Positions 3,838 to 10,734 of a DNA stretch of 64,000 nt are shown in pieces. The notes below the pieces were generated by a model. The model made no database searches and was not told the DNA's origin. It saw nothing but the letters and a program-made list of their open reading frames with translations. Source of the stretch: Escherichia phage DT571/2; the sequence record NC_047749.1. One strand, written 5' to 3'. The position numbers and the translations under genes are program-made. Position 1 is the first letter of the stretch. Every line of letters begins with the position of its first letter.

Positions 3838-3937
3838 GGTATAAACTCCAATTAATTTAATTTAAGGGATAAGATTAACATAATGTTAATCGTTATATTT
3901 CCCCAATAGTTCGGGGAAATATAAAGTTAACACTAAA

Positions 3938-5220: not shown

Positions 5221-5260
5221 CTCATTAGCCAACTAACTATCTCATTAGCCAACTAACTAT
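5221..5260. repeat. 20-bp direct repeat x2 (CTCATTAGCCAACTAACTAT)
   Basis: two identical adjacent copies. Confidence 0.9.
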
Positions 5261-5270
5261 TTCATAAGTT

Positions 5271-5450
5271 ATAATAACTATAAAAATAATCACCGTTAAA
5301 ATAATCACTATAAAAATAATCACCATTAAAATAATAACTATAGAAATAATCACCATTATAATAATCACCATTAAAATAATCACTATAAAAATAATCACCA
5401 TTAAAATAATCACTATAAAAATAATCACCATTATTATAATCACTATAAGA
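5271..5450. repeat. 15-bp tandem repeat, about 12 copies (ATAATCACYRTTAAA)
   Basis: read directly; the 68-aa ORF 5237..5443 is its translation artefact. Confidence 0.9.
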
Positions 5451-5568: not shown

Positions 5569-5872
5569 GGTTATCCTACTGTATATTTATCCAGGGTAAA
5601 AAGATAGTGTTTACAACTGCAATCAATTTTGAGCGGCCTAAAACGCTTTCTAACGAGCTGATCGCTGTAGGGTAATATTAAAGTAAAGCCTTTACCCGTC
5701 GGCCTAGAGGCTTCGCCGTGTTTTGCTCTTTACTGCACCGCTGCGCGGTTAGCATAAAACTAGGTGTTAGGCAAGAAAAATAAAAAGTAAAGTAAACGTT
5801 GCCCCTAGAAAGAAAATAATTTTACCGGTAACATCGAAAGCGGGTAATAATTAACCTAATGTAAAGTTTTGT

Positions 5873-6483: not shown

Positions 6484-6828
6484 ATGGTGATTTATGAAGG
6501 TGATCGCCTTGTTGCTGATTGCCGTCCGGCATTGTTAGCAAACTACTTAAACCAGCTTTCGCCAGTATATAAAGGCGTTATAAATATTTATGAAGGCGGG
6601 GCGCATTATAAGATTAATGCGGTCGTTGCCCGTGAACTAGCGTTTCAATTTTTAACCTTTTCATCTTGCAATATTCAGGTCATGGGTGAGGCGTTAATTG
6701 CAGAAAATGAAGATGATTTTATTAATATCTTTCGCAAGATATGCACCGAGCGCCTGATAATGAAAGGGGCATATATTCAATCCACTGCGGATAGTATTGA
6801 AACGGCTTTTCGAAAGGTGGCACAATGA
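6484..6828 (+). CDS. hypothetical protein
   Basis: 114-aa ORF with GGGAGG SD. Confidence 0.5.
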   Translation: MVIYEGDRLVADCRPALLANYLNQLSPVYKGVINIYEGGAHYKINAVVARELAFQFLTFSSCNIQVMGEALIAENEDDFINIFRKICTERLIMKGAYIQSTADSIETAFRKVAQ

Positions 6829-6966
6829 AGCTATATATTTTCGCGGGTAATGTTGAGGCTGCAAATGATTCCGCTGGTGGCGATAGCGTTCGCCATTATT
6901 GGCAAAATTATATTTACTAGGCGTAATGATCACGGGGCACAACTATCAGGGAGTGCCCCTGATTCT

Positions 6967-6991
6967 CAAATGAGAATCATTCTCATTTGAC
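6967..6991. repeat. 25-bp perfect palindrome TCAAATGAGAAT-C-ATTCTCATTTGA
   Basis: read directly; shares the AATGAGAATCATT core with the downstream 22-bp repeats. Confidence 0.85.
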
Positions 6992-7209
6992 CGCGCCCGC
7001 GATGGTTAGCACACTAATGATTAGGGTGTTACGTGTCGCCTTGTGTGATCGTTAGCGGGCTAACTAATTTTCAAGCCTCCTCCAGATTTGCCCTTGTTTT
7101 AGTATCCCCATCAAAATAAAACGCGTTAGAAAGCGATTCAGGGCGTTTTAGGCCTATATTAGAATTATTCACTGCGTAGGAATACTGTATATTTATACAG
7201 TAGAATAAC

Positions 7210-7292
7210 CTGGGGATAAGTCGGTGGATAACGCTTCAAAATGGCTAGAATTTTGTCAAGGCAAATCGTGCTGTTGATAAGTCTGTGGATAA
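7210..7292. promoter_or_regulatory. DnaA-box cluster in opposite orientation to 5487..5568
   Basis: GTGGATAAC at 7224 and TGTGGATAA at 7284, plus imperfect TGGGGATAA at 7210. Confidence 0.6.
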
Positions 7293-7299
7293 CTTAAAT

Positions 7300-7590
7300 A
7301 ACAGTGTTTCTCACTTCCGTTTTTAAATGCGAATCATTATCATTTGCATTCCACTTCTTAAATGAGAATCATTTCACTTCTTGAATAGTTCTCATTCCCT
7401 TTCTTAAATGAGAATCATTTCACTTCTTGAATAGTTCTCATTTCACTTCTTGAATAGTTCTCATTCCACTTCTTAAATGAGAATCATTCCACTTCTTAAA
7501 TGAGAATCATTCCACCTCTTAAATGAGAATGATTATCATTCGCATTCCACTTCTTAAATGCGAATGATAATCATTCTCATTCGCATTCCG
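7300..7590. repeat. about 10 tandem copies of a 22-bp unit (CACTTCTTAAATGAGAATCATT / CACTTCTTGAATAGTTCTCATT) with flanking short inverted repeats
   Basis: read directly. Confidence 0.85.
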
Positions 7591-7617
7591 GCGAGCAGGG
7601 CAATTGCCCTGCGCTTA

Positions 7618-8350
7618 TGTGCAAATCCGACAATTGCTCCAAGGGTTACGCGAGGGCATGTATGTGCAAATCCGACCCATTTTTTGGTAGTGTGCAAATC
7701 CGACCCCAAAAATTTATAAATTCGTGAGAGTGACAAATCTGTCTCCCAAAAACTCCAGCAATCACGAACTGCGTTCGAATCCTGTGGGGTATGTGCAAAT
7801 CCGACACGGTTTTTCTAGGATTAAGATGTGCGAATCCGATGAAATTTTTGTGACTTCGATGAGAGGGTGTGTGATTGTATAGGTTTGAGGAGAAGATGAG
7901 AGAGCGAGAAAAATTTTGGGGCTAGAAGTGTATGGGCGCAGGATTGGTGCGGAGCACCTGATTTGCGGGGGTTTTGGGGGATAGTGGAGATAATTTGGGG
8001 AAATTTGAGATAGGTGCAGAAAAAGTAAAATTTTATTAGCTAAAGGGGGCAATATAGCTTGACAATTGAAAATTCTTGTGGCTCTAAAAACTCAGGCAAT
8101 CATGGGCCTTCGGCCCGAAATAATGCTGCTATTTTCAGGAGATTATATGTTCCTAAAAACTTAGGCGTTTGTGCAAATCCGACCATAAATTTCTAGAAAC
8201 ACAATGTGCAAATCCGACAGTAATTCCTGGAAATGTGTTTTCAAAAAATGTCTCCTAGAAATAACCGCCCTCCCTATAACCGCCCTCCCTATAACCGGCC
8301 TAGGTATGTAACGTTGGAGGGAAACTGCCCTAGAATATGTGCAAATCCGA
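7618..8350 (+). repeat. dispersed co-oriented 14-mer TGTGCAAATCCGAC, 8 copies
   Basis: copies at 7618, 7663, 7691, 7792, 7827 (variant), 8170, 8205, 8338; several preceded by CTAGAA. Confidence 0.85.
8261..8297. repeat. 15-bp tandem repeat x2.5 (ATAACCGCCCTCCCT)
   Basis: read directly. Confidence 0.85.
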
Positions 8351-8725
8351 TTAATATTTTTGTGTGATCCCTAGAATTTGTGCTTATCAATTTCCTAGAA
8401 ACTTAGGAGTCTGCTAGAAAGTGTTGAGCCATCCTAGCAGATGAGCGGCAACCGGTGTATCATCTTGAACACAGATATTGCCTTTAAATTTTTATCAGTT
8501 ATTTAAAAGTAAATAGTCCCCCATTTCATGTGAGATTCCTCGTGGGGCGCGTGAGTATTACGGAAGACTTAGTAATTAGATCTATACTCGTGCTGTCGCA
8601 ACGTATAGACGTAATACTAAGTGTAATAATCATCGCCCCTAGAGTTCAAAACAAGAGTTGTTTTTAATCTATGAGATTATTATAACATGTTTGGGTATGA
8701 GAATGCAAGAACTTTTTGTTAACGT

Positions 8726-9082
8726 TTATACTTCCTCCTCGAGATTGGTATTAGGATCGTAAATTTTCTTGGCTCCTGTATTTAATAGGAATCGCTCTGC
8801 AAGTAGTGGGTGAATATCAAAGAACTCTGTGCATCCTTCGAATCCCTTTAAATTACAGCGGTATTTCTTAAAGTAGATATGAGCAGCGGCTTCTAGATCT
8901 CTAGGATTATGGGTTTCATAAATCCCATACACGTATAAATCGTCAAAACCACGATAAACTATATTATCTAAGTTTAGTGTTTGAATCCTATTATGTGGAT
9001 TCACACTGATACCGATCTTTGTTCTTTTAGGGATCTTCGTCAGATCCCTATTTGCAAGAATATATGCTTTATATAGTGACAT
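8726..9082 (-). CDS. T5orf172 / GIY-YIG-like domain protein
   Basis: 118 aa; KIGIS.NPHNRI motif and C-terminal EFF resemble the T5orf172 domain. Confidence 0.6.
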   Translation of the reverse strand: MSLYKAYILANRDLTKIPKRTKIGISVNPHNRIQTLNLDNIVYRGFDDLYVYGIYETHNPRDLEAAAHIYFKKYRCNLKGFEGCTEFFDIHPLLAERFLLNTGAKKIYDPNTNLEEEV

Positions 9083-9809
9083 TCTTTCTAGCCTTTAGAT
9101 AGATTCCTTTAGATGCTAGATAGATATATGTAGCAAGGAATGAAGATGTAGATCCTGTTTCTTCAAGAGTAATAGATCCTTTTGCATAACGCTTAGTTCT
9201 AGGAGCCTGGTTAAGCACAAGTGCAGTGAGACTACCTAATCCTAGCGCATCCATTAAACGTTTGAAGGAGTCCTTTTCATCGTGGATAGCATATAGAATG
9301 TAATCTTCCGCTGTAGTTAGTTCTATATCGCGATGATGTGCCACTGCAATCCGTGCTACTACAGCTCCAATCGTTCTATAAATATCTTCAAACGTAATGC
9401 TAGTTTCAAAAGCTAATGCTGGAAGATGATCGAACTTACATTTCTTAGGCGGAATAAGAAGTTGTTCAGGATAAGCTTCTAGTGCCTGACGAACGTTTGC
9501 TTCTGGGTATGTTGGCAAAGGTTCATCTATAATAACATGTAAGAAATTAGCTCTGTGTCCTTTAGCAGTTGGATCTAAAGACTTCAATACTTTGTTCATA
9601 TCTACGTATGAATACGCTAGATCTGCTTGTGGGGCATTAATATCAAACTTAATCTTCTTACCCTCCCATTTAGCAGGGAACATCTCACAAACAAACATTA
9701 CTGCATGTTTAACCTCTGGCTCCAGCTCTGATAGACATTTGTGATCTGCTGTTACTGCTAGAGCGAGAATATTCTTAAATTTATTAGCTTCTTCAATCAT
9801 ATATCCCAT
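9069..9809 (-). CDS. hypothetical protein
   Basis: 246-aa ORF. Confidence 0.55.
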   Translation of the reverse strand: MGYMIEEANKFKNILALAVTADHKCLSELEPEVKHAVMFVCEMFPAKWEGKKIKFDINAPQADLAYSYVDMNKVLKSLDPTAKGHRANFLHVIIDEPLPTYPEANVRQALEAYPEQLLIPPKKCKFDHLPALAFETSITFEDIYRTIGAVVARIAVAHHRDIELTTAEDYILYAIHDEKDSFKRLMDALGLGSLTALVLNQAPRTKRYAKGSITLEETGSTSSFLATYIYLASKGIYLKARKNVTI

Positions 9810-10138
9810 GCCTGCTGACTATTATCACTAACTTGTGTCTTTTTCTCTCTTCGTGGTTTAAAAGTTCCTGTAGTATTACTTTTACTAGGTTCTAATTTAT
9901 ACCACAGCATTCCTAGCTGGTTAACCATATGAGCAACATTTCTAGGGGTCAATGGCGGTAGGGATTCACAGTTTGATATCTCCCTTAATATATTAAATAG
10001 TTCTGCCTCTTTAGCTTTATTGTTTACTACCACCACGTACTCTAATGTTTCTACCTCAGAATCCTCATCCTTATAGTAGAGGCTAAGAGTAATTAAATTC
10101 TCCCCAGCAGGGGCTATTTTTGTTTTACCAAATATCAT
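9797..10138 (-). CDS. hypothetical protein
   Basis: 113-aa ORF. Confidence 0.5.
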   Translation of the reverse strand: MIFGKTKIAPAGENLITLSLYYKDEDSEVETLEYVVVVNNKAKEAELFNILREISNCESLPPLTPRNVAHMVNQLGMLWYKLEPSKSNTTGTFKPRREKKTQVSDNSQQAWDI

Positions 10139-10734
10139 TAACTACCTCTCTTATCTTCGTTAAGAGCAGCTCCTAGTGCTTCCATAATTGCATCTTCTAT
10201 ACTTCCATGCTTACTAGGATTGCTTAAGTGAATAGTATATGAGTTCCTAGAAACTCCAGAGTCCACAGGTGCTGCGCTTTTCCTATCAGACTCAAAAGCT
10301 TCTTGGGTATGTTTCAACTGTACAGAAGGCCCATAGTCTTCCCCAACTCGATAGGACTGATTAGACGACAGCGTACCACCGCAGGGAACATTGTGCAAAT
10401 CCGATGGATTATTTAATAGTGCAATACCACCTCTTGGCCACGAGTCACTAACATGAGTACTAGGACGGTTAACCTCAGTCTTCACGAGTTTATAACCAGC
10501 ATCTATTAATGCATTAATAAGGTTATCAGCTGGAATGCGAGCCTTGCCAAAAATCTCACGAGCGTTGTTGAGCCTACCTTCAAAACCTTTACATGCTCTA
10601 ATATTAGTGTGTGCAAAGGTTAGCTTCATAGATTTGAATTGTACAGTAGCAGTTAAATCTTTAAAGCTATAATCCCACGTATTCAGTTCATGATCTGGTA
10701 CTACTTGAATAGATTGCTGTGCATATAAAGTCAT
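10138..10734 (-). CDS. hypothetical protein
   Basis: 198-aa ORF; contains one copy of the 14-mer at 10393. Confidence 0.55.
   Translation of the reverse strand: MTLYAQQSIQVVPDHELNTWDYSFKDLTATVQFKSMKLTFAHTNIRACKGFEGRLNNAREIFGKARIPADNLINALIDAGYKLVKTEVNRPSTHVSDSWPRGGIALLNNPSDLHNVPCGGTLSSNQSYRVGEDYGPSVQLKHTQEAFESDRKSAAPVDSGVSRNSYTIHLSNPSKHGSIEDAIMEALGAALNEDKRGS

Follow-up and report, generated by a model that had tools for sequence, protein, structure and literature searches.

The repeat array on the left of the 7.9% nick homologue in phage DT57C is the central block of a T5-type injection-stop (iss) region, known in T5 as Repeat Region 3, and the dyad repeated in it is, by its sequence, a binding box of the host repressor Fur. 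The analysis covered a window of 64,000 nt (the whole stretch of record NC_047749.1 that was analysed), whose coordinates are those of the DT57C record KM979354.1. The repeats themselves were already known; what appears to be new is that they are near-consensus host Fur sites that stand in a conserved order with LexA and DnaA boxes, running from the LexA box through the DnaA-box pairs, the Fur-box array and the 7.9% nick site to the TGTGCAAATCCGAC repeats (Table 1). The "Matryoshka of repeats" description is thereby converted into a short list of candidate factors for the pause in T5 DNA entry.

Two-step transfer of T5 DNA has been known since the 1960s, and descriptions of Repeat Region 3 have reportedly been given by Heusterspreute in 1987, Wang in 2005 and Davison in 2015. 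This region has stood in the literature as the presumptive iss of T5 since 1987, the calculated shear point of the first-step DNA falls inside its repeats, and DT57C is among the phages in which it has been compared (Davison, 2020). The first-pass annotation of the window, made from the letters alone, had proposed a comparison with the T5 repeat units, and this comparison yielded a homologous stretch that is annotated as "injection stop signal (iss)" in T5, to which the DT57C stretch is approximately 86% identical. The homologous T5 region (9140-10149) is untranslated, repeat-rich and located at the inner end of the left terminal repeat. Its flanks are found in DT57C as well: an IRD'-spacer-IRC' arrangement with paired DnaA boxes precedes the array on the left, and the 7.9% nick and the DRD repeats follow on the right, the T5 iss stretch ending about 30 bp from the nick.

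We looked for genes and expression signals in and around the array. The deposited record contains no CDS between 6829 and 8725, no ORF of at least 30 aa is present in 7173-7553, and an Rfam search of 6700-8800 gave no match. No sigma-70-like promoter was detected within 7300-7590, promoter-like matches in 6700-8800 did not exceed those in shuffled sequences, and neither did terminator signals in a simple scan. The coding, RNA-gene and classical operator readings of the array were therefore rejected. The simple scan missed the G+C-rich hairpin listed in Table 1 because no T-run follows it; its relative position corresponds to that of the rho-independent terminator annotated in T5 (9275-9296), which lies just left of the iss repeats.

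Table 1. Sequence features of the injection-stop region of phage DT57C (window coordinates; a point in the strand column means that no strand is assigned; scores in bits refer to the Fur matrix).
Feature	Position	Strand	Remarks
G+C-rich hairpin GGGGCAC...GTGCCCC	6934..6959	+	End of rightward pre-early operon
Isolated 25-bp palindrome TCAAATGAGAAT-C-ATTCTCATTTGA	6966..6990	.	12-nt arms, 100% complementary around 1 central base
LexA (SOS) box TACTGTATATTTATACAGTA	7183..7202	.	19/20 match to consensus TACTGTATATATATACAGTA; CTGT-N8-ACAG palindrome
DnaA-box pair 1, TGGGGATAA-3 bp-GGTGGATAA as read on + strand	7211..7231	-	Part of T5 IRD'
DnaA-box pair 2, TGTTGATAA-3 bp-TGTGGATAA	7272..7292	-	Part of T5 IRC'
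Left composite unit TTAAATGCGAATCATTATCATTTGC	7323..7347	.	Two Fur-type sites 6 bp apart, 16.4 and 16.5 bits
Eight regular 23-bp tandem units, order A B A B B A A A	7347..7530	+	One Fur-type 19-mer each
Right composite unit 1 AATGAGAATGATTATCATTCGCATT	7519..7549	.	Three sites 6 bp apart: 15.1, 21.7 and 9.4 bits
Right composite unit 2 AATGCGAATGATAATCATTCTCATTCGCATT	7554..7587	.	Three sites 6 bp apart: 9.2, 21.7 and 18.4 bits
Palindrome GCAGGGCAATTGCCCTGC followed by GC, homologue of T5 7.9% major nick site	7595..7614	-	Identical sequence in T5
Eight dispersed TGTGCRAATCCGAC repeats (DRD repeats of T5)	7618..8351	+	Span the inferred inner end of the terminal repeat

The assignment of the repeated dyad to Fur rests on matches in both directions between phage and host. 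The consensus of the phage sites, GAGAATGATAATCATTCTC, agrees with the Fur consensus GATAATGATAATCATTATC at 17 of 19 positions. When a matrix made solely from phage sequences (61 19-mers) was run against 259,843 positions of E. coli K-12 (260 kb), its top five matches were in the ryhB, fur, fecI and fepB-entC operators. Nineteen of the 40 best matches fell in intergenic regions under Fur regulation (about 1% of the positions), and all 12 Fur promoters tested were matched within the top 48; in a control with 500 column-permuted matrices the mean was 1.65 such matches and none reached 19. Conversely, a Fur matrix derived from 13 Fur-regulated K-12 promoters, with no phage data in it, scored eight phage sites within 6966-7584 at 21.7, 21.7, 18.4, 18.0, 16.5, 16.4, 15.1 and 14.3 bits, which is in the score range of footprinted operators (8.7-23.3 bits for real Fur operators, leave-one-out, n=13). 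Ten sites of at least 14 bits occur in the 64-kb window, all of them in the terminal repeat, and the site counts observed in 7300-7590 were never approached in 2000 dinucleotide shuffles of that interval. Chance resemblance to a Fur box was rejected on the strength of these shuffles and of the column-permuted matrices.

Individual host operators resemble the phage sites closely. The exact core of the repeats, AATGAGAATCATT, is present in the aerobactin (iucA) promoter, and right composite unit 2 has an 18-nt identity in common with the ryhB operator. A blind BLAST search of 7500-7600 against 5,426 E. coli genomes found one locus only, in three of the genomes: a 25/27 match between the same composite unit and the promoter of the iron/manganese uptake gene sitA, 73-99 bp upstream of the gene. 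Overlapping sites in natural Fur clusters are offset by exactly 6 (or 3) bp (Chen et al., 2007), and the phage sites start 6 bp apart in the isolated palindrome (6966/6972) and in the composite units (7323/7329, 7519/7525/7531 and 7554/7560/7566); the 23-bp units are outside this rule. No promoter overlaps the array, which we therefore class as an array of Fur-type sites and not as an operator, and for the same reason the earlier label "operator-like" does not hold in its regulatory sense. The accompanying suggestion of cooperative binding by a repressor or a packaging/injection factor is supported in part, for injection by the homology to the T5 iss and for a repressor by the motif; no link to packaging emerged; judged by its letters, the motif would be the operator of the host repressor Fur and is not obviously that of a phage pre-early protein. 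We found no link between the T5 repeats and Fur or LexA in the searchable literature and no Fur binding experiment on the array; the comparison by Davison (2020) names only the DnaA boxes and does not mention Fur, LexA or iterons.

The array is more elaborate than a plain tandem repeat. Tandem Repeats Finder reported a period of 23 bp over 7347-7534, with 8.2 copies and 82% matches. About ten tandem 22-bp units had been annotated at 7351-7590; the array exists and the count is fair, since composite palindromic units flank the eight regular ones (7347-7530), but the period had been set 1 bp too short. Unit A is CATTCCACTTCTTAAATGAGAAT and unit B is CATTTCACTTCTTGAATAGTTCT, in which the inverted core is degenerate. 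The A units score 11.0-12.2 bits except for the one at 7508-7530, whose 15.1-bit site at 7519 is common to right composite unit 1; among the B units a score of 9.4 bits is reached at 7381 only and the other two stay below 8. Altogether, approximately 16 phased or overlapping 19-bp Fur-type sites lie in 7323-7587 and two more at 6966-6990. The isolated palindrome that holds these two (18.0 and 14.3 bits, overlapping) has the perfect arms that had been claimed for it, at 6966-6990 rather than at 6967-6991. At its place a Fur-like site that is as good or better is present in phages Kenya-K18 (18.0 bits) and Seafire (22.2 bits), phiR201 has one of 15.4 bits, and T5 has none there. The core shared by palindrome and units was confirmed: allowing at most one mismatch, the 64 kb contain 12 copies of AATGAGAATCATT, of which 11 lie within 6969-7581, and dinucleotide shuffles gave a mean of 0.25 and a maximum of 2. 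The inverted repeats noticed at the array ends are equally real, with arms of 25 nt at 7522-7546 and 7557-7581 (100% complementary, one in each right composite unit) and of 26 nt at 7326-7351 and 7562-7587 (77% complementary).

The elements that flank the array also carry signatures of host DNA-binding proteins. For the LexA box the recA operator TACTGTATGCTCATACAGTA, verified in K-12, served as reference; CTGT-N8-ACAG sequences occur four times in the window vs. 0.78 expected. Most of the phage loci examined, one from a Vibrio phage among them, keep this box at the same position, with 16-19 matches out of 20. Read on the minus strand, DnaA-box pair 1 consists of TTATCCCCA and TTATCCACC and pair 2 of TTATCAACA and the consensus TTATCCACA; paired DnaA boxes with 3 bp between them were described by Davison (2020). 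The T5 record places a "major DNA single-chain interruption" on the minus strand at 9748/9749, within a sequence identical to that of DT57C, and a nick is accordingly predicted on the minus strand between 7614 and 7615. The inner end of the terminal repeat can be placed, again by identity with T5, whose terminal repeat ends at 10219, at a probable 8084/8085.

Lack of the motif in relatives would have refuted the proposal of the first-pass annotation, as the latter pointed out, and it was not observed: every enterobacterial and Aeromonas relative examined has the motif. The Fur-like character of the array is kept in five enterobacterial lineages, an Aeromonas phage and 21 metagenomic loci. The arrays of T5, Kenya-K18, phiR201, Seafire, KpGranit, K7rec11, My1 and Erwinia phage KEY contain 3-6 sites of at least 14 bits each. 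An IMG/VR scan with the 15-mer TAAATGAGAATCATT gave, among the matches listed, mostly single chance ones in unrelated contigs and was replaced by a scan with the nick/DRD motif alone. This retrieved 21 distinct IMG/VR loci. Within 400 bp of the nick they have 2-7 sites of at least 14 bits on its left side and none on its right side, and they score at least 18/20 for the LexA box. Proteus phage 1 and Aeromonas phage Akh-2 are more distant, with A1 proteins 41% and 34% identical to that of DT57C, respectively. In both phages the Fur-like core is kept and the unit sequences are otherwise unrelated; the order of DnaA boxes, Fur-like array and CCTGCGC is maintained, with a LexA-like box (CTGT-N8-ACAG, 15-16/20) next to the DnaA boxes. 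A box of the same form and score is found there in Vibrio phage D124. The array adjoins the conserved CCTGCGC nick motif in all cases. In two Vibrio T5-like lineages the architecture is kept and the arrays are not Fur-like: phage IW18 has GATCACTATATTAGTGATC at 15-bp spacing, and D124 has 8-bp and 48-bp repeats. It may be, therefore, that the array position is set aside for a factor specific to the lineage. The spacer (CACTTC) is likewise conserved within Markadamsvirinae, which may point to another constraint or to concerted evolution among the repeats.

In the reading that we consider likeliest, the array is a pad at the boundary of first-step and second-step transfer onto which proteins already made by the host would load; that this central block of the iss, with its Fur-box dyads, is in fact loaded by host proteins at that boundary we would put at slightly less than an even chance. 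The left terminal repeat enters the cell first, so the iss module would be the last DNA in before transfer pauses, and resident host proteins would bind there: Fur-Fe2+ may nucleate on the strong composite end sites and then fill the weaker 23-bp units, while DnaA and LexA would occupy their own boxes beside the array. The large nucleoprotein complex thus formed on the membrane-proximal end of the first-step DNA could keep the DNA in place or label it while transfer is halted, until the phage proteins A1 and A2 restart it. That a factor already present in the cell takes part is to be expected, since the pause occurs without phage protein synthesis and the DNA is ejected completely into receptor proteoliposomes, without halting at 8% (Davison, 2020). 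Fur would quite probably bind the array in vitro; the chances that the Fur sites matter to the phage seem about balanced, and a causal role of Fur in the pause is doubtful. Rather improbable is the far-reaching version in which Fur polymerised on the array, with DnaA and LexA on their boxes, would be what acts in trans at the T5 injection stop, tethering the end of the first-step DNA or locking it in place. Host proteins would in that case determine the pause, which might be tunable by iron status, SOS state or the liberation of these proteins from the degrading host chromosome, until A1/A2 dismantle the complex or cut past it. If Fur binds, the array would be by far the largest natural Fur-site cluster, and T5-like phages would be unusual among virulent phages in using host repressor sites to construct a checkpoint for DNA entry; if it does not, the array remains a conserved element without an assigned role.

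A number of observations count against the Fur model. The two Vibrio lineages have non-Fur-like arrays though Vibrio Fur uses the same box. Fur is soluble and needs Fe2+, and the arrest of DNA driven by capsid pressure by a cytoplasmic protein is not obvious. Occupancy would be lowest in iron-starved cells, where the TonB-dependent receptors are most abundant. The array does not overlap a promoter, its 23-bp and 35-bp spacings are unlike those of natural Fur clusters, and the CACTTC spacer is conserved besides the Fur 19-mer. To our knowledge, screens for T5 host factors have reported the receptor and not fur. A sponge role, by which titration of Fur would derepress host iron genes, was judged unlikely, because each genome carries only about 18 sites and host DNA is degraded within minutes of first-step transfer (Davison, 2020).

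It is conceivable, if on balance unlikely, that a phage protein, most plausibly the pre-early dimer A2 alone or together with the membrane-associated A1, binds the array to recognise the end of the first-step DNA and restart transfer, the likeness to Fur being incidental or reflecting competition with Fur. A2 is a DNA-binding dimer that is needed for second-step transfer and associates with A1 (Davison, 2020); tandem dyads with inverted end units are typical for sites of dimeric phage or plasmid proteins, conservation extends into the spacer beyond the Fur 19-mer, and the Vibrio phages, with their lineage-specific array motifs, also encode A1 and A2. However, the 17/19 consensus match, the reciprocal matrix matches and the 25/27 identity at sitA are very unlikely to be accidental, and the neighbouring boxes belong to the host proteins LexA and DnaA. 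Moreover, the A2 proteins of DT57C and Proteus phage 1 share only 42% identity and the A1 proteins of DT57C and Akh-2 only 34%, yet in Proteus phage 1 and Akh-2 nothing of the units except the Fur-like core is kept; the A2 of Vibrio IW18 has diverged to a similar degree (41%), so the kind of array does not follow the divergence of A2. Nor can A2 bring about the stop, because no phage protein synthesis is needed for it, and A2 is without a match to a known DNA-binding family: Pfam and PDB sequence searches with A2 and the other pre-early proteins found none. A DNA structure could in principle jam or slow passage through the tail or channel by means of hairpins, cruciforms or a stiff or curved segment beside the nick, and this is the least probable of the readings we weighed. 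The single-strand DNA fold of 7300-7625 is strong (-63 kcal/mol, z-score -11.5 vs. shuffles), and the nick, 27 bp away, could allow strand separation. But the complete ejection into receptor proteoliposomes, with no stop at 8% (Davison, 2020), means that DNA alone does not jam, the packaged linear duplex lacks the supercoiling needed for cruciform extrusion, and the Fur-like cores persist in the Proteus and Aeromonas phages, which no longer have the long perfect inverted repeats.

Very improbable, too, is an iteron-type origin of replication or recombination, in which DnaA boxes, 23-bp and inverted iterons and a phage initiator would replicate the genome or circularise it via the terminal repeats. 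Its appeal lies in the layout, with paired DnaA boxes followed by 8-12 direct repeats at 23-bp spacing and inverted end copies, and a likeness to oriC has been noted by Davison. There is, however, no initiator-like gene nearby and no Rep-like family among the pre-early proteins, T5 origins map around the middle of the genome and first-step DNA does not express replication genes (literature cited in Davison, 2020), and both the Fur identity and the LexA box would be left unexplained. The array might also be a cis signal for a late function, directing the nicking enzyme to the 7.9% site or helping terminase to define the terminal repeat in packaging, which we regard as very improbable. It is true that the array always abuts the nick motif and that it is situated within the terminal repeat, about 500 bp from the inferred end at 8084/8085; but that end falls inside another repeat family (TGTGCAAATCCGAC), not in the array, and no other such cluster exists in the 64 kb, which should include the 18.5% and 32.6% major nick sites. 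The array is therefore not a general determinant of nicks, and a general role in nick placement was rejected.

Returning to the loading of host proteins, the array can be set beside several known systems. Iteron-type plasmid origins (P1 oriR, F ori2, pSC101, RK2 oriV) and plasmid centromeres (F sopC, R1 parC) are built from tandem repeats of about 20 bp at 22-23-bp spacing by DnaA boxes. The array resembles them in these respects and in its inverted border copies; it differs in having no cognate Rep or Par gene and in using the box of a host repressor instead of a private motif. The IHF sites in lambda cos and attP offer a probable parallel for a phage cis element made from sites of an abundant host DNA-binding protein, although here the proteins would be Fur, LexA and DnaA, the process would be DNA entry, and the role of the host proteins is putative. 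Fur operator clusters (iucA/aerobactin, fhuF, ryhB, fepB-entC, sitA) share with the array the 19-bp dyad, the hexamers GAGAAT/ATTCGC and the 6-bp offset, and the phage sites score in the range of footprinted operators. Natural clusters contain about 2-5 overlapping sites on a promoter, whereas the phage array has approximately 16 sites over 265 bp, an additional 23-bp and 35-bp phasing and no detectable promoter, and belongs to a virulent phage in which Fur binding is predicted from sequence. The closest counterpart is Repeat Region 3 of T5, in which DRE2, DRC1-4 and palE-palJ correspond to the DT57C array by position and order, with about four regular units in T5 vs. eight 23-bp units in DT57C.

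Positions 6900-7900 match Escherichia phage DT57C (KM979354.1), a Tequintavirus, at 99.8% identity and with identical coordinates (megablast). The array lies within a gene-free 1.9-kb gap (6829-8725 in the annotation of KM979354.1), with rightward pre-early genes on one side and the first early genes on the other; no ORF of at least 30 aa, no Rfam match, and no promoter or terminator signal exceeding shuffles was found in the array stretch. The 25-bp palindrome reported in the first-pass annotation exists, with perfect 12-nt arms and one central base between them, but it is located at 6966-6990 instead of 6967-6991. The tandem array is likewise real, with a period of 23 bp rather than 22 bp: Tandem Repeats Finder gives 8.2 copies at 7347-7534, and set in register the array comprises eight units, ordered A B A B B A A A, where unit A is CATTCCACTTCTTAAATGAGAAT and unit B carries a degenerate inverted core. 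Composite palindromic units bracket these regular units, and the two right-hand composite units are perfect inverted copies of each other over 25 nt, in agreement with the inverted repeats noticed earlier at the array ends. The core said to be common to palindrome and array was also recovered: AATGAGAATCATT, allowing up to one mismatch, is present in 12 copies in 64 kb vs. 0.25 expected from shuffles, and 11 of the 12 are located here.

Coordinates of features in and around the array
Feature	Position	Sequence or match	Setting or basis
Weaker LexA-box copy	5577-5596	16/20	Repeat Region 2
LexA/SOS box	7183-7202	TACTGTATATTTATACAGTA, 19/20 vs. SOS-box consensus	just left of DnaA boxes
Composite palindromic units	7324-7346, 7519-7549, 7554-7587		bracketing the regular units
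Palindrome GCAGGGCAATTGCCCTGC, then GC	7595-7614	identical to T5 7.9% major nick site	
DT57C nick-site homologue	7614/7615	CCCTGCGC/TT	27 bp right of array; alignment with T5
DT57C terminal repeat end (inferred)	8084/8085		alignment with T5

Comparison with the T5 repeats, proposed earlier as a check, showed that the homologous T5 interval (AY543070, 9140-10149) is annotated as "injection stop signal (iss)"; the same record contains a minus-strand "major DNA single-chain interruption" at 9748/9749 and a terminal repeat ending at 10219. The region has been termed Repeat Region 3 and likened to a "Matryoshka" of direct repeats and palindromes (DRE, DRC, palE-J, DRD), in a comparison of 25 phages including DT57C that emphasized the DnaA-box pairs of IRD'-spacer-IRC' and located the calculated shear point of first-step DNA within these repeats (Davison, bioRxiv 10.1101/866236). 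The feature itself was therefore already described. That 2020 paper mentions none of LexA, SOS, Fur, or iterons, the LexA box is not mentioned in the accessible iss literature, and neither the Fur-box identity nor the adjoining LexA box was found in searchable papers (the 1987 and 2015 primary papers excluded). The repeats are known; their reading as Fur boxes with an adjoining LexA box is apparently new.

The array core is identical at 12 of 13 positions to the center of the E. coli Fur consensus GATAATGATAATCATTATC. A 52-mer that we take to be the aerobactin promoter region with its Fur operator contains GATAATGAGAATCATTATT and matches hundreds of plasmids at 100%, ending 21 bp upstream of iucA; the exact phage core therefore belongs to the promoter region of a gene classically repressed by Fur. 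A phage matrix constructed from 61 unique 19-mers of eight phages, without E. coli data, was used to scan 259,843 positions of K-12 (loci L129-L137). The best five matches are the operators of ryhB, fur, fecI, and fepB-entC (two matches); 12 Fur-regulated intergenic regions (~1% of positions) account for 19 of the top 40, and each of the 12 contains at least one match among the top 48. Column-permuted palindromic matrices (n = 500) gave a mean of 1.65 such matches, and none reached 19. The sixth and seventh best matches in the 260 kb are at CAAATTGAGAATCATTCTGAATTTC in the map-rpsB intergenic region (L130, 44579-44603). This is not one of the promoters listed as under Fur control, and the sequence may be either a Fur site missing from that list or a false positive.

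A K-12 matrix (16.8 bits) was derived from 13 Fur-regulated promoters with the published consensus as seed and phage data excluded. On the phage DNA the sites, named by start coordinate, score 21.7 bits (7525 and 7560), 18.4 (7566), 18.0 (6966), 16.5 (7329), 16.4 (7323), 15.1 (7519), and 14.3 (6972), compared to 8.7-23.3 bits for left-out real operators; A units score 11-12 bits, and the only B unit above 8 bits is 7381 (9.4). All 10 sites of at least 14 bits in 64 kb are within the terminal repeat, and 7300-7590 contains 6 of them vs. 0.01 in dinucleotide shuffles. Predicted sites in the composite units are exactly 6 bp apart, the same offset that is the rule in natural Fur clusters (Chen et al., 2007). 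When 7500-7600 was searched against 5,426 complete E. coli genomes by BLAST, a single locus was hit in three genomes, where AAATGCTAATGATAATCATTTTCATTC (25/27) is located 73-99 bp upstream of sitA, encoding an iron/manganese transporter. The sit operon is regulated by Fur and MntR. In the sitA promoter of E. coli BCE049 (L146, 2540-2565) the palindrome AAACATAGCCGTTGCTATGTTT, presumably the MntR box, is directly 3' of the Fur-like 27-mer, which would make the 27-mer a separate, Fur-type element. At the sequence level, an array of predicted Fur-type sites with LexA and DnaA sites on its flank is strongly supported; we rate it as a putative cluster of Fur sites without precedent in size, set in a DNA-entry context and not at a promoter.

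The region can therefore be read as a conserved module with this order of elements: terminator-like hairpin, Fur palindrome, LexA box, two DnaA-box pairs, Fur-box array, GCGC nick site, TGTGCAAATCCGAC repeats, and terminal-repeat end. With the recA operator verified in K-12 as reference, a LexA box occupies this place in all phages examined: it is conserved in most of the T5-like phages, one Vibrio phage among them, and takes the form of a weaker CTGT-N8-ACAG box (15-17/20) in K7rec11, Akh-2, Proteus phage 1, and Vibrio phage D124. Conservation of the CCTGCGC motif immediately past the array extends to Proteus and Aeromonas phages. At 7618-8351, eight dispersed TGTGCRAATCCGAC repeats (DRD of T5) span the inferred terminal-repeat end, and a short tandem repeat (ATAACCGCCCTCCCT, 2.7 copies) lies just beyond that end at 8261-8305. 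Vibrio phages have a similar DRD-type motif (GTGCAAAT), but Aeromonas phage Akh-2 has a different one (AGTACTAAAYYGA); variation of this motif is thus independent of the Fur-like array, and a phage protein may bind it.

The region is present in 528 phage records (blastn). The first-pass annotation had made its reading depend on conservation of the motif in relatives, and the Fur-like core was found in enterobacterial relatives, Proteus phage 1, and Akh-2. The arrays of T5, Kenya-K18, phiR201 (Yersinia), Seafire, KpGranit and K7rec11 (Klebsiella), My1 (Pectobacterium), and KEY (Erwinia) each contain 3-6 sites that reach 14 bits; the maxima are 18.6-23.1 bits across the eight, and unit type and copy number vary. 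In 21 distinct IMG/VR loci, retrieved by the nick/DRD motif alone, there are 2-7 sites of at least 14 bits (median 5) in the 400 bp on the left side of the nick but none in the 400 bp on its right, and the LexA box scores at least 18/20. Proteus phage 1 (A1 41% identical) has an array of three 46-bp units whose sole resemblance to the DT57C units is the Fur-like core AGTGATTATCATTACT (15.7 bits). In Akh-2 (A1 34% identical), a LexA box, a DnaA box, and a CCCTGCGCC site frame three Fur-like units (14.2-16.2 bits) that do not resemble one another. Two Vibrio lineages retain the architecture with different arrays, both below 11 bits: a GATC-containing palindrome GATCACTATATTAGTGATC at 15-bp spacing in IW18 (L139, 312-386), and TTATATTA (8-bp) plus 48-bp repeats in D124 (L145, 3812-4018), each at the array position.

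The T5 pause takes place without phage protein synthesis and is absent with receptor proteoliposomes, and restart of transfer requires A1 and the DNA-binding dimer A2 (Davison, bioRxiv 10.1101/866236). Given such a pause and a factor missing from proteoliposomes, predicted high-affinity sites for abundant host DNA-binding proteins would be a natural candidate for what acts in trans at the stop signal. We infer that pre-existing host DNA-binding proteins would load on the array, the last first-step DNA to enter, and that this loading pad would hold or mark the membrane-proximal end of the first-step DNA until A1 and A2 act. Several weaknesses count against this model: Fur is soluble and iron-dependent, it is not obvious how a cytoplasmic coat resists capsid pressure, the Vibrio lineages carry another motif, the spacer is conserved too among close relatives, and no promoter is involved.

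The chief alternative is binding of the array by A2 or A1-A2. A2 has no match to any known family, and its divergence does not follow array type: identity is 42% in Proteus phage 1 (Fur-like array) and 41% in Vibrio IW18 (non-Fur-like). An iteron origin, which the anatomy would fit, is less likely: it lacks an initiator gene and is at odds with the mapped T5 origins. A signal residing in DNA structure is similarly less likely: the single-strand fold, with a z-score of -11.5, speaks for it, but complete ejection in vitro contradicts it. Less likely too is a nicking or packaging signal, a reading weakened because no second such cluster is found in 64 kb. With the array identified as putative Fur boxes, a question open for ~60 years becomes directly testable.

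Other Fur-like sequences are present elsewhere in the window. Two strong, overlapping Fur-type sites (18.5 and 17.3 bits; GGAACTGATAATCATTATCATCTTC) at 228-252, inside the 3' part of dmp and ~230 bp from the first-entering genome end, are conserved in T5, and the corresponding part of dmp in Proteus phage 1 carries a site of 18.8 bits; the sites in dmp may be a coding coincidence. A 12.9-bit site (CATAATGTTAATCGTTATA) at 3879-3897, intergenic upstream of A2, has an identical sequence at T5 4175. A 15-bp tandem array at 5271-5443 (ATAATCACCATTAAA, 11.5 copies; units of 8-13 bits with the Fur matrix) overlaps the "repeat completion protein" CDS (5237-5431, minus strand); this CDS looks like a non-coding repeat misannotated as a gene.
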